Virus record (IMG/VR): IMGVR_UViG_3300045988_044858
Location: 1-36,557 of that record
Strand: one strand, 5' to 3'
DNA from: a virus
Length of the DNA: 36,557 bases
A program made the translations under genes and the position numbers. Under the pieces are notes generated by a model that saw nothing but the letters and a program-made list of their open reading frames with translations, ran no database searches and was not told the origin of the DNA. Below are positions 2,999 through 36,557 of this stretch, in pieces (positions within the stretch are counted from its first letter, which is position 1; each line of letters begins with the position of its first letter).

Positions 2999-3036
2999 AT
3001 CTTTAATTTTTAATTGGTTATTTCCTTTTGACACTT

Positions 3037-3067
3037 CAAAGATACGACAACTTTTCATACTGCCAAA
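3037..3067 (-). promoter_or_regulatory. Bacteroidota-type promoter: TTTG-N19-TATCTTTG
   Basis: The minus strand reads tatatTTTGgcagtatgaaaagttgtcgTATCTTTGaagtg, about 39 nt upstream of the ATG at 2998. It matches the -33 TTTG / -7 TAnnTTTG consensus. Confidence 0.7.
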
Positions 3068-3112
3068 ATATAGGGTAAACTCTTAACTTTGATTTGTATT
3101 AAACGCTCTTAG

Positions 3113-5114: not shown

Positions 5115-5153
5115 AACTTCTAATTTTAATTGGTTTATTTCCTTTTGACATTT

Positions 5154-5184
5154 CAAAGATACGACTTAATTATGAACTACCAAA
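5154..5184 (-). promoter_or_regulatory. Bacteroidota-type promoter: TTTG-N19-TATCTTTG
   Basis: The minus strand reads agTTTTGgtagttcataattaagtcgTATCTTTGaaatg, upstream of the ATG at 5114. The leader is shared with the 3037 promoter. Confidence 0.7.
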
Positions 5185-5212
5185 ACTTCTCTCAAAAAAC
5201 TTTAGTATATTA

Positions 5213-5250
5213 ACAAAAATAAAGTCTCGCGTATCACTACGAAAGACTTT
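5213..5250 (-). terminator. candidate rho-independent terminator after the primase-helicase gene
   Basis: The minus strand reads AAAGTCTttcgtagtgatacgcgAGACTTTatttttg: a 7-bp stem, plus 2 further bp past a bulge, followed by a T-run. Confidence 0.45.
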
Positions 5251-5320: not shown

Positions 5321-7711
5321 TCACAAAGATAGTAATTTTTTGCTTTCCTCGCTACCTTTACGGATATAAACTACTTGTTGACCGTATAATTTCGTTCTTT
5401 TTAACTTTCCTTTAAACCAGCCCTTCATTTGCCGTATCGCTGTTGCCAGTTCTCGTCCTTTCGCGCTTGTATAATCTTCTTTCTTGCGCCCCATGGCATC
5501 TACCCAAAGCTCCATCAGGCAGAACGTGTTTTTTTGAACTGTCCCAACCTCTTCCAGCGATCCGGCCAGAAAGTCCGCGCGTTGTTGTTCGGTGCGCTCT
5601 TCATAGTCAGCCGGGAAAAGCCTATCTACGTAGTTTTCTATAATACCTACTAGCGGGCTTTCTTCTGTAAATTCTTCGCGCCCCTCGTTGGCGATCGCTT
5701 CGGCTTCGTCAGACAAAACAAGGCTTTCACCCAGCATGTACAGTTCCATTGCTTCCGCCCAAAGTTGGTCTACTATTTTTTCGAAAGACTTTTCAAAAAG
5801 TTTGTGTGTGTTCTTATTAGCGCATACCTCGATCGGGAAGAAACGGCGGTTTCCGGTTTTGTCCTTCAAAAACTCATCATCATTGGTTGACCCGAAAAAT
5901 ACACATTGTCGGCGGTGTGTCTTGACGCGTCTAGCGTACGCGCTACGATACGTATCTTCGCGTTTGCTTATGAAGTTCTTAGTAGCCTCCACGTCCGAAC
6001 GGCGAAGGGCTGACAACTCGGCTAGCTCCACGATCCAGGCGTGCTGTATCGCTTCGTACGCTTTTTGGCCGGACACGTCCGTTAATGAATCGTTGAACCA
6101 ACCTTTCGAAAGCGCCTGTATAAGCGTGGACTTTCCCGCGCCCTGTCCTGAATACATAACCAAAGCCGTATCAAACTTGCAGCCTGGCTCATAAACTCTA
6201 GTAACGGCTGCAACTAACATTTTACGGAGCGCCTCGGAAACGTATATGCTAGGCTCTGCGCCCATGTAGTCAACTAAGAAATTATCTATCCGTTTCACTC
6301 CGTCCCAGCGTTGTGCCTCTAGATACTTCTTGATAGGGTGGAAAGCGTTTTCGCTGCAAACCTTTTCCAGTGCATCGTTTAATTTGCTGTCATTATAAAT
6401 ACCGTGCAAAGCCTCTATACGTCCACGGATAATCGCTACTGCTGTGTCGTCCAACATATCACCTTTCTTTATGTCCTTCGAGAAGAACGGTGTCCGGGTG
6501 TACACGATCGTGTCTAGGAACAAGTCGTAAGCTAATAGATCATTTAATAGCGGATCACACTTAAAAGCGTTAACGAAGTTGCGAACGGTACACAATTTAT
6601 CACCTTTGCGATCCAAGTCCCAGACCAGTTCCTCGGCGGTCTGCGCGTCGCTCTTAACCTCGTCCGTGTATTCTTCGAAGTCGGCTAGGTCGTCATCAAG
6701 CGATACCATATCCTTAACACATTCTTTATCGGCGCAAATTAGCTTGTTCATCTCGCGGGTACTGTCTTCCTTACCCAGGTGCCCGAACTTGTGCACACGT
6801 ACCAAATCGTAGGCGTTATAGGCGTGTCCGTCTCCGATAGGGTCGGTTGAGTGGTGGGAAAAACAAAGCACGTCATCATACACTACCAGCCCGGCAGCGC
6901 CTGATCCAAGAACGTATGTATAACGGCCGTTTTCCGCTTCTGTGTAAACGTCTGAAAGGTACTTGTCTATTGCTGCCTGTATCGTGTACGAGCGGCAAAA
7001 CGCGCCTACCAAACCCTCCTTATCGCGGGGGTCTTTTGCCATCTCCTTACTAATAACGGCGCGGGTATCACGTTCTACTTCTGAATGGAATGCCCATTTG
7101 CGCACGTCGCGCCATTCTTCGCTGTCTCCGTAAAGGCCGATAAGATACTCGGCGCTGATCGGCTCGCCTTCGAACACTTCGAATAGTCCGGTTTGGTCTT
7201 TGGAAAGAGATTGCCAGTACATCATACGTTCCGGCTGAAAGGTTGTTTTATCGAATAAATCAATACCTAACAACTCGGCTACTTTACGCGCCGCGGCTTC
7301 GTACATTGTAACGTCTGTAACCTCTTCTTTGAACGGCATAATAAGACGGTAACGGCGCGATCCGGGGCGGTCTGATCTAGTAGTGTAGATGGCAGCGGCT
7401 ACGCCCGGAAAACGATCTGCAAAATCGAATGGGAATAAATCGTCGCCAAAGTCTACATCTAGCGTAATCATAGAGCGGGACATAACCGCTTTCTTAAGTC
7501 TCTGTGGGCCGGAGAGCTCGCCAGCCATGAATCCGCCTACATCCTTCAAAGACGATTTAGCGGGCTTGTCCAGCCTGTCGAACTCGCGTACCGTTTCGTT
7601 AGTGATAACGGGCGTTCCTAGTCTTTCCAAAAATGCTTCCCAAGTCATACGTACGGCCTTCCATTTCAGAGACGCCGAAGAACCTGCAAGCGATAAGGTG
7701 TATTTTTCCAT
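5321..7711 (-). CDS. bifunctional primase-polymerase / SF3 (VirE/D5-like) helicase
   Basis: 796 aa. The N-terminal half carries an AEP-like acidic motif (ITLDVDFGDD) and SHHSTDP. The C-terminal half carries Walker A SGQGAGKST and Walker B-like WIVELAEL. The gene sits immediately after the DNA polymerase gene. Confidence 0.8.
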   Translation of the reverse strand: MEKYTLSLAGSSASLKWKAVRMTWEAFLERLGTPVITNETVREFDRLDKPAKSSLKDVGGFMAGELSGPQRLKKAVMSRSMITLDVDFGDDLFPFDFADRFPGVAAAIYTTRSDRPGSRRYRLIMPFKEEVTDVTMYEAAARKVAELLGIDLFDKTTFQPERMMYWQSLSKDQTGLFEVFEGEPISAEYLIGLYGDSEEWRDVRKWAFHSEVERDTRAVISKEMAKDPRDKEGLVGAFCRSYTIQAAIDKYLSDVYTEAENGRYTYVLGSGAAGLVVYDDVLCFSHHSTDPIGDGHAYNAYDLVRVHKFGHLGKEDSTREMNKLICADKECVKDMVSLDDDLADFEEYTDEVKSDAQTAEELVWDLDRKGDKLCTVRNFVNAFKCDPLLNDLLAYDLFLDTIVYTRTPFFSKDIKKGDMLDDTAVAIIRGRIEALHGIYNDSKLNDALEKVCSENAFHPIKKYLEAQRWDGVKRIDNFLVDYMGAEPSIYVSEALRKMLVAAVTRVYEPGCKFDTALVMYSGQGAGKSTLIQALSKGWFNDSLTDVSGQKAYEAIQHAWIVELAELSALRRSDVEATKNFISKREDTYRSAYARRVKTHRRQCVFFGSTNDDEFLKDKTGNRRFFPIEVCANKNTHKLFEKSFEKIVDQLWAEAMELYMLGESLVLSDEAEAIANEGREEFTEESPLVGIIENYVDRLFPADYEERTEQQRADFLAGSLEEVGTVQKNTFCLMELWVDAMGRKKEDYTSAKGRELATAIRQMKGWFKGKLKRTKLYGQQVVYIRKGSEESKKLLSL

Positions 7712-7712
7712 G

Positions 7713-9713
7713 TTAATCTTTCTTATAATAATTACTAGTGAATCCTTCTGCCTTCAACGGAATACCGAAAGCGTCCGCCCATTTTGGTGTAACTGCCATC
7801 GCTTCGCAAATCTCTTTAAGCGATACAGTTGGCTCGCCAAAATCGTCCAGGGGTACCTCGTTTACTGTTTCGTCATGGATATGTCCCACAATTTTAACAG
7901 ACGGGTAACGTTTTACGATTTCTTGCATACCATATGCCAGAAGGTCGCGGCTGACTGCCTGCGTTATATTTTCGGTTAGCTTTCCGCCGTATGTGTCTAG
8001 ATCTGCCCATTTTCCGGTAAGGTCTTGACCCTTGTATGTTATAACCTCTCTGTCTCGTCCGTTCACGCTTTTTGTGGCGATCCGGCAAAACGGGTAAAAC
8101 AAACGACGGCCCGAAGGTAATAAAATTGCTAGAGAATTGTTTTCTGTAAACCATTGAAATGTACAAACGTGTACGCCGTACCGGATAACCTCTACGTCTT
8201 TCTTGTTACGAATACAGAGTTTAGCCCGGCTGTCCAGGGCTTCCCAAAAATCAACTATTCGTGGAGAAGCTGCGCGCCATTTCAATATAATATCCTTGTA
8301 TAACGCCGGGTCAATTGCCTTTTCATAGTCCATCGTAGACATAGCACCTACCCAACCACCGTAACCTAGAGCCAGCTCTGTTACTTTGCCCTGTTGGCGG
8401 TAATGAGTGCCTTTGCCGCATTGATCCTCGGGCAAACTAAATGTCATACTTGCAGACACTACATATATATCTTTCCCGTTGCGGAACGCTTCAATACGCC
8501 AATCTTCACGGCATAGGCACGCCAGTACACGGGCTTCGATGGCTGAATAGTCGGCGACATGGAATATAGTTCCCCTTGGAGCTACAAACGTTGTTCTGAT
8601 AAGCTGCGATAACGTGTCAGGTACATTTCCCCAGAACGTTTCGAAGTCTGCCAAACACATGTGCTTAACATTATCACGTGCGCCGTCCAGATCATGTATG
8701 TAGTTACGTGGTAGGTTCTGCATTTGGACTAGTCTACCCGCCCATCTGCCAGTACGCCCCGCGCCATAGAAACGGTACAAACCGTGTACACGTCCATCGA
8801 AGCACACGCAATTGCACATGGCTGTATATTTGGCGTTGCTAGTTTTGTTTATGATCTTCCGGGCGTTCAGTACCTCGTCTACCCGCTCGTTGTCGCACTC
8901 CTGCATAATATCCTCTATGTCCTCTTTGCGGAACGAATCAAAAGACTTTCCAGTATTGATTAGAACAAAGTCCTTTAATTGCATTGTAGACTTTAGAGAG
9001 GATATGCCGTACTTAGTTTTAATACGATTCTTAAGAGTTTCGCAAAATTCCTCGTTGAGGGCGTCCGCCCGTTCCGCTAGTTCCATATCCACGGCTATGC
9101 CGTTGTCGTTTATGTCCTGGTCCAGCCTGTACAGGTCTATTTCCGACTGTGGGAAATTGCAATAGTCTAGGCGCGTCAGTGCTTCACGTTCTGATAAGAC
9201 ATCATATCGTAGGTAGTCTATAAATTCCTCCCACTTTTCCGGATAATCTTTTGACAAGTTCCGGTACTCTTCCGGTTTCGCTCTAGTCGGTTTTTGCGGC
9301 TGACAGAAGAATTTTATAAGGGCTAGACCCGTGCCCTTTTTCCCTTCTTTCAAGTCCAGTGCTTTGGAAAGGTTTCCCAGGCTCTCCGGGAACCCAGCGT
9401 ATAATGCCATAGTTGCGGTACATAGGAAACGCTCCGCGGGAATGTCTACCTTATACGCCTTCAAACACAGGCGTTCAAACTGCGCGTTATGCGCCACGAT
9501 CGTATATTGGGGTGACGAGATGAGACGAGCGAAAGCGGCAAATTTTATGATCGATCCGGGCTGTGTCATATCTATAATATTTACGTCTCCGTCTTCGATC
9601 GCATAACCTATCAAAAGTATTTCAAAGTCGGGCGATTGCGTATATCTGTACGCGCCGCCTGCCTTAATGTCCTCGCTTGAATAAGTTTCAAAATCTATAT
9701 AAATTGGTTTCAT
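7713..9713 (-). CDS. family A DNA polymerase (Pol I-like, with 3'-5' exonuclease domain)
   Basis: 666 aa. The N-terminal exonuclease region starts IDFETYS and contains HNAQFE. The polymerase motifs are RQQGKVTELALGYGG (motif B) and VGHIHDE (motif C). Confidence 0.9.
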   Translation of the reverse strand: MKPIYIDFETYSSEDIKAGGAYRYTQSPDFEILLIGYAIEDGDVNIIDMTQPGSIIKFAAFARLISSPQYTIVAHNAQFERLCLKAYKVDIPAERFLCTATMALYAGFPESLGNLSKALDLKEGKKGTGLALIKFFCQPQKPTRAKPEEYRNLSKDYPEKWEEFIDYLRYDVLSEREALTRLDYCNFPQSEIDLYRLDQDINDNGIAVDMELAERADALNEEFCETLKNRIKTKYGISSLKSTMQLKDFVLINTGKSFDSFRKEDIEDIMQECDNERVDEVLNARKIINKTSNAKYTAMCNCVCFDGRVHGLYRFYGAGRTGRWAGRLVQMQNLPRNYIHDLDGARDNVKHMCLADFETFWGNVPDTLSQLIRTTFVAPRGTIFHVADYSAIEARVLACLCREDWRIEAFRNGKDIYVVSASMTFSLPEDQCGKGTHYRQQGKVTELALGYGGWVGAMSTMDYEKAIDPALYKDIILKWRAASPRIVDFWEALDSRAKLCIRNKKDVEVIRYGVHVCTFQWFTENNSLAILLPSGRRLFYPFCRIATKSVNGRDREVITYKGQDLTGKWADLDTYGGKLTENITQAVSRDLLAYGMQEIVKRYPSVKIVGHIHDETVNEVPLDDFGEPTVSLKEICEAMAVTPKWADAFGIPLKAEGFTSNYYKKD

Positions 9714-9843: not shown

Positions 9844-10419
9844 TTAAAATGGAACGTTCATTCCGAATGGGTCGTCGTTTTCATCGCTTAAATCTTCGAA
9901 GTCGTTGACACTTGATCCGCCGTCCAGTCTATCGTCATCAGTTACTTTCTGAATTCCGTTTAATCCGGCTGTTATACCGCGGTTGTCGGCGCTCATGTTG
10001 TAACCGTAGATTGAGATGGAAGCTACTCCCCAAGAGCCGGAATACATATCCTCTTTCACTGTGATCGGGCGTTTACCTTTGTCGATTACGATCGGTTGCC
10101 CATGCTCCTCTTTGCGCTTCGCGGTAATGTAGTACATACCTTCAAACCCGGCTTGCCCTTCTTTTTCGGGGTCGTCACCATCCTTCAACGGGCTTTTGAA
10201 ATTGGCGGGTACTTGTCCCTTGAATTTAGGATCTTTTGCAAAATATTCCTGTGCTTCTGCCTTGACCGCGTCGTTAATTTGCTTAACTAGGGCGGTGTCT
10301 GTTTTGGGAATCAAAAGAACAACACTGTAATGAAAATCCCCTACTCCGTTGAATTGTTCTGCCTCGAAAACTCTTACATAAGAGAAACGTACGTTTTTTA
10401 AGATCAATTTTCTGCTCAT
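9844..10419 (-). CDS. DUF2815-family phage single-stranded DNA-binding-like protein
   Basis: 191 aa with VRFSYVRVFE, LIPKTD, SPLKDGDD, YSGSWG, NRGITAGLNGIQK and an acidic tail ending DDPF. This closely matches the DUF2815 pattern found next to DUF2800. Confidence 0.82.
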   Translation of the reverse strand: MSRKLILKNVRFSYVRVFEAEQFNGVGDFHYSVVLLIPKTDTALVKQINDAVKAEAQEYFAKDPKFKGQVPANFKSPLKDGDDPEKEGQAGFEGMYYITAKRKEEHGQPIVIDKGKRPITVKEDMYSGSWGVASISIYGYNMSADNRGITAGLNGIQKVTDDDRLDGGSSVNDFEDLSDENDDPFGMNVPF

Positions 10420-10459
10420 AATTTTTAAGATTTTAATTTGTTATTTTTCTAACACGGTT

Positions 10460-10489
10460 CAAAGATATTGCTTTATTTTAGACTTCAAA
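10460..10489 (-). promoter_or_regulatory. Bacteroidota-type promoter: TTTG-N18-TATCTTTG
   Basis: The minus strand reads acggTTTGaagtctaaaataaagcaaTATCTTTGaacc, upstream of the DUF2815 gene. Confidence 0.65.
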
Positions 10490-10525: not shown

Positions 10526-11689
10526 TTAGCCTTCGATGTCGAAGTCACAAAGCGGGTTATATTCCACACCCTTAGCACTTTCCGGTACTAGTTTAGGTGC
10601 GCCGGGCCGCGATTCGATCGCGTCTCCAAATCTTGCGCTAAATACCTTTTTGCCTACCAGCTTCTCGAGATCTCCGATACCTTTTAACTTGATGTTTAGT
10701 ACTTCGTCCTCCAGGAACTCGTTTAAGAGCGCTTGACGTATTTTCGCCTCGTCCTTGATAACTCGGCTCGACCGTCCGGCTACTAGCTTGTAGCCCTCCC
10801 ATTTATGCCCCTGTATCGCTCTATCGTAGACGTACTTATTTACTGATTCGATCCAGCTTTTGTAAGTGTCGATCTTACCAATAAGGTCTGTTACTTCCTC
10901 GTCAGACAATAACAGTGGTTCGGGCTTTTCGTCGAAGTCTGCAAGAATTGCGTCACGTTGCGCCCTGCATTGGGCTTTAACCGGACAGAATTGGCACCAA
11001 CTTCCAATAACCTGTTTCCCTTCGCCATGTATTGCCGCTTTTGCGGCCGGTTTCAGGACTTTCTCCGCCCAATCAAGTAACTCACCCTTTGACATCTCAA
11101 ACGTGTCGTAGTGGTCTAATCTGACTTGTGCGATTGTCATTCTAATATTGGTTATGTCCTTCGACGCTGCCGCCTTCAAAGCTCCCAGAGCATACAACAT
11201 CATTTGTTCGTTGTAATCGGCTGTTACCTTAACGCCTGCGCCGTACTTCAGATCTATAATGTGTATTGCCTTGTCAGATGATAGTGTTACGTCTACCGAT
11301 CCGAACGAATCAGGTGCATAATCGGTAACGTCTACTTTACGTTCTAGGAACATCTGGCACGCGCCATCCTGTTTTTGCATCTCGTAACCTTCACCGATAA
11401 CGTATTCGCAATAGTCGCGAATGTAATTCGCCATATCAATACTAAACAGCGGGTTTTTAAGATGTTCGTCTTTGATTGGCAGGGCTTCGTCTATGATAGG
11501 ATCATAAGCACCGTTCAGATACTGTGTCAAAGCATGTTCGGCTATTTCGTGGGCTAGTGTGCCCTCTTCGGCGTAAACGCTTGACTTGCCGCCTGCGGCT
11601 TCCGCTAGTAGCGCCGACGGAGTACAATGTATCCATCGTTTCGCGCTACTTGGCGATAAAATCGCGTGTTCTCTATCCGCGTGTCTCAT
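10526..11689 (-). CDS. DUF2800-family PD-(D/E)xK (Cas4-like) nuclease
   Basis: 387 aa with HAILSPSSAKRWIHCTPS at the N-terminus, EGTLAHE, DLKYG, and a C-terminal Cys cluster CQFCPVKAQC. Confidence 0.82.
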   Translation of the reverse strand: MRHADREHAILSPSSAKRWIHCTPSALLAEAAGGKSSVYAEEGTLAHEIAEHALTQYLNGAYDPIIDEALPIKDEHLKNPLFSIDMANYIRDYCEYVIGEGYEMQKQDGACQMFLERKVDVTDYAPDSFGSVDVTLSSDKAIHIIDLKYGAGVKVTADYNEQMMLYALGALKAAASKDITNIRMTIAQVRLDHYDTFEMSKGELLDWAEKVLKPAAKAAIHGEGKQVIGSWCQFCPVKAQCRAQRDAILADFDEKPEPLLLSDEEVTDLIGKIDTYKSWIESVNKYVYDRAIQGHKWEGYKLVAGRSSRVIKDEAKIRQALLNEFLEDEVLNIKLKGIGDLEKLVGKKVFSARFGDAIESRPGAPKLVPESAKGVEYNPLCDFDIEG

Positions 11690-12216
11690 TATAGACGGCT
11701 TGAAATGTATGCAACAAAATCGTTAAACATCTCCTCCTTCAAGGTTGGGAAACTGGACGCGCCTACGCTTCCAAAAGCTTCTTGTACAATCGGGCGTTTC
11801 TTTGCGTTTAGCGCTTTCATAGCCCATGATTTACAATCGTCGATAGTATAAGACGCTGCATCCGTTTTAGGCGCTTCTACCTTTACGGGTTCTTCTACCT
11901 TTACGGGTTCTTCTACCTTTACGGGTTCTTCTGCTGGTGCAGGCTCTTCTGCTGGTGCAGGCTCTTCGCTCGGTGCAGGCTTCGCGGCTCGTTTAGCACG
12001 GGTCTTGGCGCGCTCTGCTTCCATCAATAGCGGCAAGCAAACTTCTTCGTCCTTCGCCTTTGTTGCTTCTACAACCGCGTCCGCTAACTTGTCAAGATCG
12101 GTTTTACGTTCCGTTACTTCTGGTACGGCTTCTCCCGCCAGCTCGCGCAAATAGTTGGAAGTTGCTAACAATTCCTTCACACTCTCATTTCCGATTAATT
12201 CGATTACTACTTTCAT
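11689..12216 (-). CDS. hypothetical protein with a Pro/Glu-rich hexapeptide repeat linker
   Basis: 175-aa ORF. Its centre is SEEPAPAEEPAPAEEPVKVEEPVKVEEPVKVE, encoded by six 18-bp tandem units. Confidence 0.7.
   Translation of the reverse strand: MKVVIELIGNESVKELLATSNYLRELAGEAVPEVTERKTDLDKLADAVVEATKAKDEEVCLPLLMEAERAKTRAKRAAKPAPSEEPAPAEEPAPAEEPVKVEEPVKVEEPVKVEAPKTDAASYTIDDCKSWAMKALNAKKRPIVQEAFGSVGASSFPTLKEEMFNDFVAYISSRL
11875..11982 (-). repeat. six in-frame 18-bp tandem units inside a CDS
   Basis: Three copies of ttctacctttacgggttc (EEPVKV), then two copies of ttctgctggtgcaggctc (EEPAPA), then one degenerate unit. Confidence 0.9.
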
Positions 12217-12392
12217 TTTTTCTTAAAATTAAAAATTGTTTCTAATAATTCATTTTTGCTCACTCTGATCTTGCCCGTTCCATTTTCGTACCGGGTGAGC
12301 TTTCCGGCGTTAAGTTGGTAGCGTATGGCGTTTTCGGTGCACTCCGCTAACCGGGCGGCTTCTGCCACTGTGATAAGTTCTACTTTTTCCAT
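12213..12392 (-). CDS. excisionase/MerR-type helix-turn-helix DNA-binding protein (59 aa, below the track cutoff)
   Basis: My translation is MEKVELITVAEAARLAECTENAIRYQLNAGKLTRYENGTGKIRVSKNELLETIFNFKKK, which shows the HTH_17-like pattern. It has an ATGA overlap with the next gene. Confidence 0.6.
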   Translation of the reverse strand: MEKVELITVAEAARLAECTENAIRYQLNAGKLTRYENGTGKIRVSKNELLETIFNFKKK

Positions 12393-12709
12393 TTCATTTT
12401 CTCATTAAATTTAAAACTCAATTTGTCAGACGTTCGATAAGTTTGTACGTGATCGGAGTACGCGGCGCGCCGGGCCTGCTCGAAAATAGTTTCGTAACGT
12501 TTGGCGTGTGGAATTATAAAGCCCCGGATTTTATACTTAAACTTTTTTCCGGCCTCTTCTTCTCGTTGCAAATCATCGAACACCATTTTCGAGTTGCCCG
12601 GATAGCCATATAGCATTGTAGCCTCGCCTATCGTTTTGCACGCTGTAATCCTCTCCCGTATAATCTTGTAAAAGAACGCTTCTAATTTATAAATGTCTAT
12701 TGATGCCAT
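12380..12709 (-). CDS. hypothetical protein, first gene of the early unit
   Basis: 109-aa ORF directly downstream of promoter 12786-12815. Confidence 0.65.
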   Translation of the reverse strand: MASIDIYKLEAFFYKIIRERITACKTIGEATMLYGYPGNSKMVFDDLQREEEAGKKFKYKIRGFIIPHAKRYETIFEQARRAAYSDHVQTYRTSDKLSFKFNEKMKWKK

Positions 12710-12785
12710 ATCTAGTAATGTTTAAAACGATTCTCCGGTATCGGAATAGTTCAACAAATTTAGTTGGTTTCTCATTTCGACGTGA

Positions 12786-12815
12786 CAAAGGTAAGGCTTT
12801 GTTTTGAACTACAAA
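12786..12815 (-). promoter_or_regulatory. Bacteroidota-type promoter: TTTG-N18-TACCTTTG, heading the early unit
   Basis: The minus strand reads agTTTTGtagttcaaaacaaagcctTACCTTTGtcacg. A second possible -7 box, TAAATTTG, lies at 12755-12762. Confidence 0.6.
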
Positions 12816-12916
12816 ACTATTTCCCAAAAAACTTTAGTATTTTAACCCTGATTAACTGTTTTGAAGGTTTGATAACGGTGTAAATGATGAATAGCCCTTT
12901 TTAAGCGGATCTTTTA

Positions 12917-12951
12917 CACCTTAACTAATTGCGTATCAGTTAGTTAAGGTG
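12917..12951. other. perfect 12-bp inverted repeat with an 11-nt spacer, overlapping an iteron
   Basis: caccttaactaa-ttgcgtatcag-ttagttaaggtg. The left arm overlaps the ATCTTTTACAC site at 12909-12919. Confidence 0.8.
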
Positions 12952-13095
12952 GCGAAAACAGGGAAATGCATAAGATGTAAAGGTGTTTTCCATATAGTTT
13001 ATATTTAAATATTTCTATAAATTCATTCACATATTAATTCATATATTTACATATATTATAGATTATCTAATATTTATCTGTCAGCTCTATATAAC

Positions 13096-13198
13096 ATCTT
13101 TACATCTTTTACAAATGATATATATTATATGATAAAGTACTAGTTATTAGTGAGTTAAGTGTAAAAGATACAAATTTTAATCGTTTACATGCAAAAAC
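13096..13198. repeat. 103-bp dispersed repeat, copy R1
   Basis: It aligns with 32483-32584 at about 86 of 103 positions by eye. It includes identical blocks atctttacatcttttacaaat and gtgtaaaagatacaaattttaa with the same 56-bp iteron spacing. Confidence 0.85.
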
Positions 13199-13274
13199 GC
13201 CAACTCATTAAGAATCAGCGTTTTAAGTTTTCAAGTGTAAAAGATGGAAGGGCGTTTATGAAAGATGAAAGGCA

Positions 13275-30360: not shown

Positions 30361-31533
30361 CTAATCATTATTTGCGTATCTCGGGCGGTATTTACGTATA
30401 AGATAATCAACGCCGTAGCGCACAGCGTCCAATGCATGGTTGTAAGCGTCTACCGGCTCGTTGGTGTACGTGTCGGTCAGGTTGTCCTTGACGTAGGTGT
30501 AATTGTCCGCCTCGTCCAGTACGTTAGTGCTCCGCTTCGTTACAAACAGGTTGAACTGCTTCACCTGTTGTATGCCCGCCCGGATAGATCCTTTTCCCTT
30601 GATGCAGGGGATCGTGTTACAGCCCAGGCCGCGCAATTCTATAATAGACTTCTGCTCCGCGTTGTCGCATACCGTAATGGTACGGTGCAGGCCTTCGTCC
30701 TTGAGACGCTCGGCGATCGTTCGGTTCAGCATCTTCGTCTCGTAGCATACTTCGTCTATGTACAGGTTCATGCCCCGCATGTAGATTTTGACGATAGCGG
30801 TCGGGTCGTTCTGGAAGCCAAAATCAAGCCCTGTAACGAACTTTACGTCCTCGCCCGTTAAATCCTCCGGCAAAGCGTCGATCGTCTCAATTTGGGGATA
30901 TACGAGGCCTTCCAGACCGCCAGTCAGTCCTTCACCGTAGACGCGCCACCAATTAGCATCCTTGGCGTTGCGCTCTATCGCTTCTACTTGCTGCTTGGAT
31001 AGATACGGGTTGTCCTTGTAGGTCGAGTGGATCGTTACGTACTTGTCGCCTGTGAAGTCCGTCTCGCCCCAGAAGCGCCGCACCGGGTTGAAGTCAATAA
31101 TAACCTTGATCGTGGTACGTACGTCCAGCTGTCGGAATATCTCGCGGGGCACGCGCTGCGCCTCGTTGATGAAAAGAATGTCCCGGGCCGGACCATGTAC
31201 CTTCGACGCGTTGTCACACCCGAAGAACTCGATGCACACGCCCGGCTTCACCGTGTAGATCAAGTCGGACTTGTTGAGGGCGTTGTCGTCCCACACCCCC
31301 TCATCTAACAGCATGTTCTGGAAGTCACGGAACATACCGCGCTTGACCGCCGGGAGCGTGTCGGTAACACAGGAGATCATCAGAGGCTCGGTGCTTTCGC
31401 TAGCGACCAGATAGAGGAGCTGTAACACACTCCACGTCTTGGATGAACGTGTACCACCCTTGCTTGCTATACCTCTTATATAGGGGTCGCAAAACGGTCC
31501 TATCATCTTGTTAAATACGTAGGTGCAATTCAT
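30361..31533 (-). CDS. terL: terminase large subunit (PBSX / Terminase_3 type)
   Basis: 390 aa with a Walker A-like KGGTRSSKT, Walker B DILFINEA, STYKDNPYL, and the nuclease motifs GLDFGFQNDPTA, CDNAEQKSI and NHALDAVRY. Confidence 0.9.
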   Translation of the reverse strand: MNCTYVFNKMIGPFCDPYIRGIASKGGTRSSKTWSVLQLLYLVASESTEPLMISCVTDTLPAVKRGMFRDFQNMLLDEGVWDDNALNKSDLIYTVKPGVCIEFFGCDNASKVHGPARDILFINEAQRVPREIFRQLDVRTTIKVIIDFNPVRRFWGETDFTGDKYVTIHSTYKDNPYLSKQQVEAIERNAKDANWWRVYGEGLTGGLEGLVYPQIETIDALPEDLTGEDVKFVTGLDFGFQNDPTAIVKIYMRGMNLYIDEVCYETKMLNRTIAERLKDEGLHRTITVCDNAEQKSIIELRGLGCNTIPCIKGKGSIRAGIQQVKQFNLFVTKRSTNVLDEADNYTYVKDNLTDTYTNEPVDAYNHALDAVRYGVDYLIRKYRPRYANND

Positions 31534-32222
31534 TACTTATCCTCCTCTTTATGATCCTTCTTGAAGTTCTTAATCGAGCTAACCTTTGCGCGCACTTTCG
31601 GATCGGTGACATTCACAGTCAAGCCGCCTTTGATGGCTTCGCCGTTGGACGTGTAGTCCATTTGCGTTTTAATGCCCCGTAGCGCACGAACGTAGTTGGC
31701 GTCGAACTGTCCCACCGTCGCGCCCTGATCGAGGTCCTGTGCGATGGCTTCGCGTATCCTGTCGATCACCGCTATGAAGTCCGCGCATATCGTCAGATCG
31801 AACTCCTTGAGGTTCTCGGCGTACGTGGAGCGTCTATTGCTTAAGTACACGGGATTCGCCCCTAGGAACATGCAGAACTCGCCTTCCGATTGAAGGTGCT
31901 TCTTTGGCACTTCATAGAGCGTTCCAGCCATGTTTCCGGACTTGACGGCCTCTTGTGTTATAACGGGCGTCGCTTCGCACCAAGCCGAGTAAATCGCGTA
32001 GGCCTCCCAAAGTTCTTGGGGTTCTTGCCAAATAGGCGTCATACCGTAATGCGCCGTAGCGACCTGGTAGCACTTGGTGTAGTTGAACGAATCCGCTAAA
32101 TAGCGGGTCGTCGCGTATGTGGGAGCTAATTGGAAGTGCGCGTAATCCGGCCTAACCTTCTCGGGCTTTGGCAGCTGTACCGCTTCCTTAGTTTCTATGA
32201 TTTCTTTCTTCTTTGTAGCCAT
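31533..32222 (-). CDS. terS: putative terminase small subunit
   Basis: 229-aa ORF with a start/stop overlap to terL. It is the first gene of the late unit. The assignment is positional. Confidence 0.5.
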   Translation of the reverse strand: MATKKKEIIETKEAVQLPKPEKVRPDYAHFQLAPTYATTRYLADSFNYTKCYQVATAHYGMTPIWQEPQELWEAYAIYSAWCEATPVITQEAVKSGNMAGTLYEVPKKHLQSEGEFCMFLGANPVYLSNRRSTYAENLKEFDLTICADFIAVIDRIREAIAQDLDQGATVGQFDANYVRALRGIKTQMDYTSNGEAIKGGLTVNVTDPKVRAKVSSIKNFKKDHKEEDK

Positions 32223-32252: not shown

Positions 32253-32295
32253 CTCTTTTTCCGCCCAAATCGCATCATTTACGCCTATCAAAACC

Positions 32296-32351
32296 ATCTT
32301 TTACACCTGAAACCCCGATGGATAGGGCGTTTCAGCCCGAGTGTAAAAGAT
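32296..32351. other. 56-bp composite palindrome: two inverted iterons enclosing a nested hairpin
   Basis: atcttttacac / gtgtaaaagat (11 bp) flank ctgaaac-c-ccc-gatggata-ggg-c-gtttcag. Confidence 0.8.
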
Positions 32352-32352
32352 G

Positions 32353-32360
32353 CAAAGATA
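32353..32360 (-). promoter_or_regulatory. -7 box TATCTTTG abutting an iteron and the 56-bp palindrome
   Basis: The minus strand reads ttTATCTTTGcATCTTTTACAC. A transcript starting here would begin inside the 32296-32351 palindrome. Confidence 0.35.
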
Positions 32361-32482
32361 AAAAGACGTTTTCCCTATTAGATATATTTTAAAAAAATAC
32401 CCCAAATTAATTATTTAAAATAACAATAGTATATTTATGTTAACTGTATTATTACTTTTTATAATGTACTCCACTAGTATCT

Positions 32483-32584
32483 ATCTTTACATCTTTTACA
32501 AATACACTATATTACAGTATAAAGTACTATAAATAAGCGATTTAGGTGTAAAAGATACAAATTTTAACCTTTTACATCAAAAAC
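32483..32584. repeat. 103-bp dispersed repeat, copy R2
   Basis: Same orientation as 13096-13198. It lies in the ORF-free region upstream of terS. Confidence 0.85.
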
Positions 32585-32783
32585 TTGAAAAGTACGTTCT
32601 ACGTCTTGTGGGGCTGGTCAGCTGTAAATGATGAAATGGCAATGTAAAAGACGTTTTGGCTACTTTTTTTGTCAAAAACAGGCTTTTTAGTTAAAATACC
32701 GTTAAAATCAAGTTTTCTCTATAAAAAGTTTTCTCTCACAAAGTTTTTGTAGAAGTGCGCCAAAAGCGTGTTAACGGTTTTAA

Positions 32784-32820
32784 CACAAAAAGGGGTTAAC
32801 ATTTTTATACATTAACCCCT
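32784..32820 (-). terminator. rho-independent terminator ending the early unit
   Basis: The minus strand reads AGGGGTTAAtgtataaaaatgTTAACCCCTTTTTTGTGTT: a 9-bp stem, a 12-nt loop and a U-run, 7 nt after the stop at 32827. A second 7-bp hairpin, gtgttaa/ttaacac, follows at 32768-32786. Confidence 0.75.
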
Positions 32821-32826
32821 CAATCC

Positions 32827-33366
32827 TTATATAACCAACCCGTATAAAACCTTCCAGTCGTCCAAAATTTCTTTACATTTCCATTTCTCTGCCCTTTCTA
32901 TGTTTTCCCATCTCAAAGTACGGTGGTTCAACTTGTCTAGTGTCCTGCTACCGTCACAGTACATATTTACCCGGTACAGCATTGAAACCTCTATGCCGTA
33001 TTTGTTCATCTCGGTGTCCTTGCTCGTGTAGATCGGTCTCTCTATGTCGTCATTCTCATACGGTCCTACGCGCTTCTTGTCCTTGTCACGGTATAGCATG
33101 TTCTCTACTGTCGGTATGCGCTCCGGGTCGGTCCGTGTGTTCCTGTCGTCCCGTACCTTACTAGCCGCGTACATTATGTCCCGGATAGCTTCGCAGAATA
33201 TCTCGGCATTTACGGCGTGAAACGGTTTGCCCTTCACCTTGGCGTACTTCACGCCGTTCGCTTCAAGCCAGTTGAATATGAAAAACGCGTGGATATTATA
33301 AACTCGTGCCATATCTTCGATAAGCAGCACTTTTCTCTGATTCTTCTTAATATATGGTGTCGGCAT
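32827..33366 (-). CDS. hypothetical protein with a possible N-terminal excisionase-type HTH
   Basis: 179 aa. VLLIEDMARVYNIHAFFIFNWLEANGVKYAKVKGK resembles an HTH_17 pattern. It is the last gene before the strong terminator. Confidence 0.6.
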   Translation of the reverse strand: MPTPYIKKNQRKVLLIEDMARVYNIHAFFIFNWLEANGVKYAKVKGKPFHAVNAEIFCEAIRDIMYAASKVRDDRNTRTDPERIPTVENMLYRDKDKKRVGPYENDDIERPIYTSKDTEMNKYGIEVSMLYRVNMYCDGSRTLDKLNHRTLRWENIERAEKWKCKEILDDWKVLYGLVI

Positions 33367-34831: not shown

Positions 34832-35553
34832 ACTCTTGATTTATGAATAAATAATTTCTCTACTGCCCTCTCGGCCCTACCAGGGCTTAGGGCCGATGGT
34901 ATTTCACGCCCCCACACGCAAACGAAGTCGTCCGGCGCGTTGTATTCAGAAACAAACACATCATGCCCCTCGGCCACTCTCCCTCTGCACCAAGCCCAGA
35001 AATTTTCGTGGTCTATCGAGTACTTGTATTTTGAGACACCCTCATACGGAGGGTCACAATATATAATGGAATTAGGGGGGATACTCATATCGTTATAACT
35101 TCGATTAGTAAATTGTACCCCGTCTAGTAGGGGAACTTGTGCTAATATGTTACGGATTGCTTCTCCTATACGATCTCTAACTCCGCCCGCCGCGTCCACG
35201 GCTGAATGACCCGCATACCCTCCGAAAAATGTGCCGTTAAAACCCGCCATAAAACCAACCCATCCGATATAGTGCATCGGGTACCCATCCGAATTTTGTT
35301 TATAACATGTCCGCACATCGTAGTAATGCTCCCTGTCTATGATCTTTGGCGGGTCCCACCCCCACGACAACGCCTCCCACATTGCAATTAAATATGGGTT
35401 GCCATCATTAGCTATTCTATTACCCGGTACTTTATCTATCATATTGCATCCGCCGCAAAATGGCTCTACATAATATTGACCATCTTTTCTACCTTCTAAT
35501 ATAATGGCCAAAATTTGTTTGGCTATCCGCCGCTTACTTCCCATGTATATCAT
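34828..35553 (-). CDS. D12-class DNA N6-adenine methyltransferase (Dam-like)
   Basis: 241 aa with YMGSKRR, EPFCGGCN (the AdoMet-binding FxGxG region) and the catalytic IIYCDPPYEG (DPPY) motif. ATGA overlap with the SNF2 stop. Confidence 0.85.
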   Translation of the reverse strand: MIYMGSKRRIAKQILAIILEGRKDGQYYVEPFCGGCNMIDKVPGNRIANDGNPYLIAMWEALSWGWDPPKIIDREHYYDVRTCYKQNSDGYPMHYIGWVGFMAGFNGTFFGGYAGHSAVDAAGGVRDRIGEAIRNILAQVPLLDGVQFTNRSYNDMSIPPNSIIYCDPPYEGVSKYKYSIDHENFWAWCRGRVAEGHDVFVSEYNAPDDFVCVWGREIPSALSPGRAERAVEKLFIHKSRV

Positions 35554-36557
35554 ATTCTATATTTTTTAATTAGTTCCTTAACCATATCCATCAAGCCGTT
35601 TTGCGTGTCCGCCTTTCCGCTTAGAGCCGCTATAACCCGCTCGTCAATTGTACCCCGCGTAATAATGTGATGGACAAACACGCTGTTCTTTTGTCCCTGT
35701 CTCCACAAGCGGGCGTTGAACTGCTGGTATAACTCCAGGCTCCAGGTAGTACCGTACCATATTATACGGTTGCCTCCCTTCTGCATGTTCAGACCGTGCC
35801 CCGCGCTTGCCGGGTGTGTCACTAGGACGGGTATCTTTCCTTCGTTCCACCTGCGTACGCTATCCACGCCTTCAAGGGCTTCCGCTCCGAAACTCTTCAG
35901 GGCTTCCAATATGCGCGCTTTCTCGTGTTGGAAGTTGTACGCCACCAGTACGGGCGACCCGTTCGCGGCCTCTACCATCTCTACTAACGTCTCTAGCTTC
36001 TCATCATGCACGGTATGTATGTTCCGGTCTGCGTCATAGATCGCACCGCCTGCGAACTGTAAGAGTTTGTTTGATAGGGCGGCGGCGCTTAACGCTGTGA
36101 TCTCTTCCTCCTGCATAAGTTGTAGCACTTGATCCTCTTCAAACTTGTCGTACTGCTTCTTCACCTTCGGCGATAACTCTACGTAGTTGTTGAGGTATGT
36201 AAGTTCCGGCATGTCCAGGAAGTCTAGCGCTTTCATCGAAAGGGTAATGTCGGCTATCTTTTCGCCTAATACCGCCTCGGTTGTTGCAAGCGGTTTGTAC
36301 TCGTAAACTATCCCGCCGTTCTGCGCTCCGGGTCTGAAATAGTTGGCCCGGTAATCGGTGATTGTCTTCCCCAGCCTTTGCCCGCCATCGACTAAATACA
36401 TTTGCGCCCACAGGTCTATTAGTCCGTTTGGCGCGGGCGTTCCCGTCAGACCCACCACCCGGCTAACGCTACGCCGGATAATCTTCGCCGCCTTGAAGCG
36501 TTTAGACTGATGGTTCTTGAAAGAGGACAACTCGTCCAGTACTAACATGTCGTACGG
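35550..36557 (-). CDS. SNF2-family helicase, C-terminal part (continues from 421-1 across the circle junction)
   Basis: Contains LVLDELSSFKN, GLTGTP, a helicase C-terminal domain (ILVTHPASAGHGLNMQ) and RLWRQGQ (motif VI). Confidence 0.9.
   Translation of the reverse strand, partial: PYDMLVLDELSSFKNHQSKRFKAAKIIRRSVSRVVGLTGTPAPNGLIDLWAQMYLVDGGQRLGKTITDYRANYFRPGAQNGGIVYEYKPLATTEAVLGEKIADITLSMKALDFLDMPELTYLNNYVELSPKVKKQYDKFEEDQVLQLMQEEEITALSAAALSNKLLQFAGGAIYDADRNIHTVHDEKLETLVEMVEAANGSPVLVAYNFQHEKARILEALKSFGAEALEGVDSVRRWNEGKIPVLVTHPASAGHGLNMQKGGNRIIWYGTTWSLELYQQFNARLWRQGQKNSVFVHHIITRGTIDERVIAALSGKADTQNGLMDMVKELIKKYRI
36503..36557. repeat. 55-bp exact terminal direct repeat, copy 2 (identical to 1-55)
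   Basis: Direct comparison of the last 55 nt with the first 55 nt shows no mismatches. Confidence 0.95.

Follow-up and report, generated by a model that had tools for sequence, protein, structure and literature searches.

The virus sequence IMGVR_UViG_3300045988_044858 from IMG/VR (36,557 nt; hereafter, the window, which is the whole stretch of DNA analyzed) carries two AT-rich intergenic regions, R1 (12879-13266) and R2 (32275-32652). We interpret them as two copies of the replication origin module of a Bacteroides phage, likely read by the C-terminal domain of the phage primase-helicase. This reading, which combines sequence comparison, a structural model and analogy with known systems, has in our estimate a probability of about 0.7. 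The kind of origin is itself known, being that of self-loading superfamily 3 (SF3) helicases; the two-copy layout and the natural covariation of the repeats (iterons) with a residue in the helicase wing are what makes this case interesting and testable.

To locate the repeats, both strands of the window were searched exhaustively for the decamer TGTAAAWGAY. There were 11 exact matches, compared with 0.30 expected, and none of 100 shuffled sequences had 11 or more. Five were in R1 (12879+, 12909-, 13104-, 13160+ and 13236+), six in R2 (32296-, 32342+, 32491-, 32547+, 32623+ and 32643+), and zero outside these regions. An earlier note, made from the letters of this DNA, had listed the same five R1 positions and had proposed, from a skim by eye, that the motif is restricted to the two regions; both claims held. 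When one mismatch was allowed, the number of matches increased to 16 (3.3 expected), gaining the sites at 13180 (R1) and 32567 (R2) inside the regions, and matches at 10231, 12667 and 16787 outside them, which is the chance level. With degenerate copies included, each region has approximately 10 sites. The copy at 12667, also reported earlier, does exist at 9 of 10 bases and is probably a coding coincidence rather than a real site. It was not counted because it lies within the coding sequence of the first gene and because half of the relatives have TATAAAAGAA there.

The sites are arranged in the same way in both regions. A block of 105-121 bp with 17-18% GC lies between inverted double sites, in which TGTAAAAGAT overlaps TGTAAAGAT (inverted repeats I14 in R1 and I16 in R2). 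Each flank has at least two sites, those of one flank being opposite in orientation to those of the other (R1, 13096-13113 on the minus strand and 12967-12985 on the plus strand; R2, 32483-32500 and 32342-32359). The two arms of I14 are 21 nt long, 86% complementary and separated by 105 nt. R1 and R2 are the two parts of the window with the lowest GC content (0.26 and 0.285, versus ~0.46 for the bulk). The least stable 100-bp duplex window of the genome is within the R1 core (-98.0 kcal/mol) and the second least stable within the R2 core (-101.5 kcal/mol), both about 4 standard deviations from the genome mean (-137.6 kcal/mol, standard deviation 9.5). The AT-rich block and the perfect hairpin described for R1 in the earlier note are present, and its view that R1 lacks a credible open reading frame (ORF) was borne out, as the ORFs there have TTG or GTG starts only and encode at most 46 aa, apart from one that runs in antisense to the gene upstream.

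Over ~400 bp, R1 and R2 are collinear and their sites are spaced identically (56 and 76 bp); they share a 101-nt block with 82% identity. Judged from these sequences, they are two copies of one module rather than two independent regions. An exact 55-nt terminal direct repeat (1-55 and 36503-36557) indicates that the window is a circularly closed assembly of ~36,502 bp. On this circle, the two modules are separated by 19.4 and 17.1 kb, i.e., they are roughly opposite each other, and each is directly upstream of a long single-strand gene block, the early operon for R1 and the packaging/structural operon for R2. R2 is bounded by the intrinsic terminator of the preceding gene at its start and by the small terminase gene at its end. 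The terminator (32790-32821, minus strand) has a 13-pair stem and a T-run, and is located 6 nt past the gene for a 179-aa protein. In R1, site c overlaps a -7-like box on the gene strand (TATCTTTT, 13170-13163), with a TTTG at 13196-13193 and a spacer of 21 nt; in both modules the promoter-like element at site c is directed into the AT core.

Table 1 Coordinates of the two modules, their sites and the proposed initiator in the window.
Feature	Sequence	Coordinates	Strand	Basis and remarks
R1 origin module (proposed)		12879-13266		~10 iteron-like sites around AT-rich core; R2 paralogue; kept in ~30 relatives
Site a', 9-mer variant	ATGAAAGAT	13258-13266	+	Sequence; core ATCTTT kept in relatives
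Site a	TGTAAAAGAT	13236-13245	+	Exact match; positions 3-4 variable among relatives
Site b	TGTAAACGAT	13180-13189	-	One-mismatch match; 30-bp palindrome with site c
Site c	TGTAAAAGAT	13160-13169	+	Exact match
Left-arm double site d+e	TGTAAAAGAT + TGTAAAGAT, 1-base overlap	13096-13113	-	Exact match and inverted-repeat detection
AT-rich core, proposed DNA-unwinding element		12990-13095		GC 0.17; nearly invariant in relatives
Right-arm double site	TGCATAAGAT + TGTAAAGGT	12967-12985	+	Inverted partner of d+e; inverted repeat I14
Hairpin		12917-12951		Perfect 12-bp stem, 11-nt loop
Site f	TGTAAAAGAT	12909-12918	-	Exact match; position 12915 follows flavour
Site g	TGTAAATGAT	12879-12888	+	Exact match; position 12882 follows flavour
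Early promoter, Bacteroidota type	TTTG-N18-TACCTTTG	12786-12815	-	Downstream of site array; in repeat family D1
R2 origin module (proposed), R1 paralogue		32275-32652		Sites and inverted double sites I16
R2 sites		32275-32284 (-), 32296-32305 (-), 32342-32351 (+), 32351-32359 (+), 32483-32491 (-)		Motif search and comparison with R1
R2 sites, continued		32491-32500 (-), 32547-32556 (+), 32567-32576 (-), 32623-32632 (+), 32643-32652 (+)		Motif search and comparison with R1
R2 AT-rich core		32375-32481		GC 0.18
Primase-helicase, 796 aa, proposed initiator		5321-7711	-	PHROG 256/9765; Pfam VapE-like domain
C-terminal winged-helix domain (predicted), residues 729-784		5360-5527	-	AlphaFold 2 topology; predicted local distance difference test (pLDDT) 71-78

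To compare the modules among phages, we collected the R1, R2 and primase-helicase loci of 13 GenBank isolates and ~35 IMG/VR relatives. There was almost no variation in the AT core and most of the flanks, and the variable columns were the sites themselves. Across ~45 relatives the sites were found in two flavours, A-type (TGTAAAAGAT with TGTAAAGAT) and C-type (TGTCAAAGAT with TGGAAAGAT). Twenty-three genomes were A-type, having no C-type site, and 13 were C-type, having mostly C-type sites. In R1, the flavour is defined by positions 13110 and 13102 in the double site d+e, of which site d was kept in 31 of 31 relatives; position 12882 in site g was C in all 11 C-type and none of the 20 A-type genomes. 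Conservation of the repeat in related phages, a check suggested in the earlier note, was found for a family of sites, TGT[A/C]A[A/T]AGAT, and not for one fixed decamer. Within a genome, the double sites of R1 and R2 generally had the same flavour (12 A/A, 9 C/C and 2 discordant, p = 1.2e-4), and the genes adjoining R1 and R2 showed no association with flavour. The concerted change of around a dozen sites in two regions 19 kb apart points to a trans-acting reader.

A more distant clade, whose helicase is just 67-69% identical, carries TGTAATAGAT, which forms exactly two clusters in each genome, arranged as in R1 and R2. A loss of the motif in the B. caccae isolates, considered from de novo k-mers, was rejected, as the pattern had been over-strict and this clade uses TGTAATAGAT. 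Motif decay or escape from defence as the cause of the variable sites was likewise dropped once the table of many genomes showed two flavours. In a still more distant clade with genomes of ~33 kb (L038-L063), 12 of 24 loci had three or more copies of a palindromic CTGCACAG within the AT-rich gap that follows the DUF6549 homologue, and this repeat may be the equivalent site of that clade.

To seek the reader, every column of the 36 proteins of the window was tested for association with flavour (10,308 tests). The earlier note had named two HTH proteins and the primase-helicase as proteins worth testing for binding. The best column was residue 778 of the primase-helicase, which was Arg in 9 of 10 C-type genomes and 1 of 20 A-type genomes (p = 6.7e-6); the other A-type genomes had Ala, Gln or Val, and the window protein has Gln. 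The second-best protein column had p = 4.4e-4. No column tracking flavour was found in the helix-turn-helix (HTH) proteins of 59 aa (12213-12392) and 179 aa (32827-33366), a 109-aa protein or the small terminase (TerS), for which the best p values were 3e-3 or higher. Among 6,663 variable nucleotide positions tested, the top nine were bases of the sites, and the best one outside the sites was 5379, the second base of codon 778. When C-type genomes were matched to their nearest A-type genomes by the 3' end of the helicase gene, 778 was the sole tail position that differed in every informative pair. Seven of eight isolates outside the discovery set fitted the pattern: Arg778 was found with C-type sites in five and with mixed sites in one, and Ser or Ala with A-type sites in two. 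In the clade whose helicase is 67-69% identical, this residue is Pro or Ala. The gain of an Arg as the site gains a C:G pair would be chemically sensible.

The primase-helicase is related to known self-loading initiators. It matched the Pfam VapE-like_dom (7.9e-78), and its residues 386-711 matched the Rep protein of the staphylococcal pathogenicity island SaPI1 (PDB 7PDS_A, E = 6.6e-74). The N-terminal 384 aa had no relative in Pfam, PDB or NCBIfam, with PHROG 9765 'DNA primase' as the sole match. An AlphaFold model of residues 638-796 predicts a beta-alpha-alpha-alpha-beta-wing-beta topology for the tail, with the wing loop (771-778) between strands 765-770 and 779-784; codon 778 corresponds to 5378-5380. 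Since the modelled loop spans 771-778, the two best-associated tail positions, 771 and 778, would be at the two ends of the wing. The top Foldseek match of the modelled tail was 7pds_F (probability 1.00, E = 5.4e-3, 137 columns), and almost all the remaining matches were winged-helix DNA-binding domains.

The layout of R1 and R2 is that of the SaPI origins, in which an AT-rich region separates 6-12 iterons into two oppositely directed groups of at least two (PMC9371898). The SaPI Reps are both self-loading helicases and initiators, and a winged helix in their C-terminal domain recognizes the short iterons; the primase and Rep are fused in SaPI5 (PriRep5), the specificity varies between related elements, and the discrimination by Rep in vitro is still unclear according to the authors (PMC9371898). 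The phage shares with this system the homologous SF3 core, the predicted C-terminal winged helix, the primase-helicase fusion (as in SaPI5) and the split-iteron layout. There are also differences. The SaPI origin is directly downstream of rep, whereas the phage has two modules away from the gene, and the phage sites are 9-10 bp long while SaPI iterons are 5-6 bp. Moreover, SaPIs are satellites of Firmicutes, whereas the virus is a complete tailed phage of Bacteroidota that encodes a family A polymerase of its own.

By this analogy, the primase-helicase would bind the double sites flanking the AT core of R1 and R2 via its C-terminal winged helix, with assembly on either side of that core. Once the core is melted, the protein would load itself to serve as replicative helicase and would provide primers to the phage family A polymerase. 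SaPI Rep and P4 gp-alpha work in this manner. We infer physical binding, melting and initiation at R1 and R2, and the firing of both copies, from the comparisons above. As site c overlaps a promoter-like element directed into the AT core, transcription from this element may, speculatively, help to open the origin.

Several observations weigh against this origin model. The modules are not beside the helicase gene, one being 5 kb upstream of it and the other 9 kb downstream, and the sites resemble the -7 box of Bacteroidota promoters. Sites a, b and c do not track the A/C flavour, which suggests for site c a partly different role. The p value of residue 778 is borderline after Bonferroni correction (~0.07), the sampled genomes are related to each other and most are from one metagenome, and there are exceptions, namely 038600, in which Arg occurs with A-type sites, 035735, which has Ala and mixed sites, and the isolate BK687P1 (mixed). 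Partly silent positions in the genes for the primase-helicase (6269) and the polymerase (8316 and 8442) are associated with flavour almost as strongly, thus part of the signal reflects a linked haplotype island in the replication module. Finally, the tail model is moderate (mean pLDDT 58) and the Foldseek E-values are weak (5e-3 for the top match, >0.2 for the rest). Position 8475 is likewise among the partly silent flavour-associated positions in the primase-helicase and polymerase genes.

The earlier note had regarded an origin and an operator array as equally compatible with R1. The origin was supported by the SaPI-like layout, the Rep homologue and the covariation with residue 778, and the two readings no longer stand level. 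As operators, the sites would be bound by a phage regulator that coordinates the early and the packaging/structural operons, with the AT block acting as promoter or UP-like DNA and the module duplicated for co-regulation of the two units. The position of R1 and R2 directly upstream of long one-strand gene blocks is consistent with this, as are the full Bacteroidota promoter of R1, the overlap of site c with a -7-like box with a correctly spaced TTTG, and the 30-bp palindrome formed by sites b and c, which is typical for dimeric regulators. A small HTH_17 protein is encoded nearby (12213-12392); the flanking proteins had only a weak HTH_17 match, below the Pfam cut-off. However, most sites are 90-480 bp upstream of the early promoter and symmetric about the meltable core, rather than over the promoter, and we detected no CI/Cro-like repressor beside R1 or R2. 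In the association test, the 59-aa, 109-aa and 179-aa proteins and TerS did not come close to the helicase wing. We therefore consider regulation by operators unlikely as the explanation of the modules, and it would mainly concern sites b and c.

It is less likely still that the sites are promoter elements, i.e., variants of the Bacteroidota -7 box TAnnTTTG clustered as promoters of both orientations for the host polymerase, for example for short transcripts. The resemblance is real: the opposite strand of the site reads ATCTTT[T/G]ACA, and its C-type form after a T makes a perfect TATCTTTG, which is also found in the full promoters of the phage at 10467, 5161 and 3044, and in R2 at 32360. Yet a -33 TTTG at the correct distance is present for site c only, and a promoter scan of the window revealed full Bacteroidota promoters on the gene strand only, whereas the sites are in both orientations. 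A-type and C-type phages share host species and even strains (DA735 and DA687), so neither the concerted switch nor the link to a phage protein can be explained by a host sigma factor. Among the isolates that infect B. ovatus, BK735P3 is A-type and BK687P2 C-type. A sigma-70 promoter scan of R1 and R2 was at chance level, with a consensus that is not relevant to a Bacteroidota host.

The small terminases of some other phages bind repeats near their own gene, as at SPP1 pac and lambda cosB, and the small terminase gene (31533-32222; PHROG 606, GP3_package) comes directly after R2, so pac or cosB-like packaging sites were considered too. This is the most improbable of the three alternatives, as TerS does not covary with flavour (best p 3e-3), an equal second copy is found 19 kb away beside the replication genes, and neither the symmetry about a melting-prone core nor the link to the helicase tail is expected for a pac site. 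A non-coding RNA was rejected, as Rfam had no match in the whole window at gathering thresholds and gave merely two eukaryotic matches, by chance, in R1 and R2 at E ≤ 1; an RNA or single-stranded DNA hairpin of sites b and c was rejected for the lack of a compensatory change in BK735P1, and an invertible segment between the inverted double sites was unsupported, the AT core having the same orientation in all ~30 relatives.

Other systems resemble the proposed phage origin in part. Satellite phage P4 has the same short repeat in two separated regions, ori and crr, which differ structurally and are both required, and its gp-alpha has 777 aa. The phage likewise has its repeat in two separated regions and a protein of similar size; unlike ori and crr, its modules are near-equal paralogues. 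No sequence similarity to P4 was seen, with no search aimed at it. P4 gp-alpha and other D5-family SF3 primase-helicases bind their origins by a C-terminal winged helix (PMC4889955). The primase of P4 is of the DnaG type (PMC4889955); the phage protein's N-terminal domain had no detectable relative in Pfam, PDB or NCBIfam. Papillomavirus E1 and SV40 large T, SF3 helicases that load themselves and carry an origin-binding domain, act as double hexamers on head-to-head short repeats beside AT-rich or easily melted DNA (PMC3401641). They differ from the phage protein in that this domain is N-terminal and has another fold, their hosts are eukaryotes, and they have no fused primase.

Iteron plasmids of the RepA, pi and RepE type also have initiator repeats beside an AT-rich unwinding element, and their iteron/initiator specificity sets compatibility groups. 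Unlike the phage protein, the plasmid initiators are not helicases and depend on the host DnaA, DnaB and DnaC, and the plasmid iterons usually lie to one side of the AT-rich element, as direct repeats of ~17-22 bp. The modules also differ from the OL/OR operator arrays of lambda, given the absence of a detected CI/Cro-type repressor next to them and the distance of most sites from the early promoter.

Three further features of the modules were observed. The hairpins in R1 and R2 (the latter at 32306-32340) are unrelated in sequence, and occupy the equivalent place between the right-arm sites. Merely a 7-9 bp core of the R1 hairpin is retained in most relatives. The loop is reverse-complemented with the stems unchanged in relatives L021 (R1) and L065 (R2), i.e., a spacer was inverted between short inverted repeats, indicating that the hairpin arms have interacted in nature. 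Second, within the 101-nt block (13096-13196 and 32483-32583), the stretch around TAGTACTTTAT is shared by R1 and R2, and B. caccae phages have it as TTAGTACTAATG. Its conservation exceeds that of the iterons, and it might be a host-factor site or a region where transcripts start. Third, R2 alone has the repeat GAGAGAAAACTT / TAGAGAAAACTT upstream of the module (32700-32750), and a related TTTTGAGAGAAAAG occurs six times in B. caccae phages, confined to the equivalent place in the genome (L003, 15126-15320); these repeats might be the binding sites of a late-operon regulator.

The window is ~92% identical to isolated sewage phages of Bacteroides ovatus, B. caccae, B. koreensis and B. kribbi (OP1726xx and PQ5712xx), and a literature search found no paper describing these phages. 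All the long ORFs are on the minus strand, and GC skew is uninformative for the origin because all genes are on one strand. Downstream of R1, the replication module encodes a DUF2800 exonuclease, a gp2.5-like single-stranded DNA-binding protein, the family A DNA polymerase and the primase-helicase. The ORF at 35550-36548 probably runs across the junction of the circle, where relatives have an annotated 1,374-nt helicase gene.

Several other repeats were detected in the window. A family of ~40-75 nt with full Bacteroidota promoters (TTTG-N18-19-TATCTTTG / TACCTTTG) is present at 3023-3097, 5140-5214, 10431-10467 and 12772-12846, and looks like a promoter cassette reused ahead of several early gene blocks. 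Tandem repeats of 18 nt are located at 11856-11972, inside the gene for a 175-aa protein (ORF 11689-12216). Many IMG/VR contigs and GenBank records of the phage family begin or end near the equivalent of ~11750, which looks like an assembly break at the 18-nt repeats and not a physical genome end. Two 66-nt copies with 89% identity (2559-2624 and 2801-2866), each with the GC-rich stem GGGCGGCGTTACCCGCCC, are found at a small-gene junction and may be terminators or a duplicated gene boundary.

Going beyond the origin itself, the site flavours could be natural replicon specificity groups in co-circulating gut phages, though we hold this only tentatively and it may well not be so. The change from Ala, Gln or Val to Arg at residue 778 would retarget the initiator from TGTAAAAGAT to TGTCAAAGAT, with ~12 sites in two origin copies converted in concert, and the duplication would be a functional two-origin design rather than a leftover. 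If true, the split into flavours might be under selection because it prevents relatives in the same cell from using or titrating one another's initiator. Almost no gut Bacteroides phage has a mapped origin, and here an origin, its likely initiator and a candidate specificity residue are predicted from sequence. Pairs of A-type and C-type phages would represent a natural specificity-swap experiment for a self-loading SF3 helicase, and knowledge of the origin would be useful for Bacteroides shuttle vectors, for engineered phages and for reading coverage peaks in viromes.

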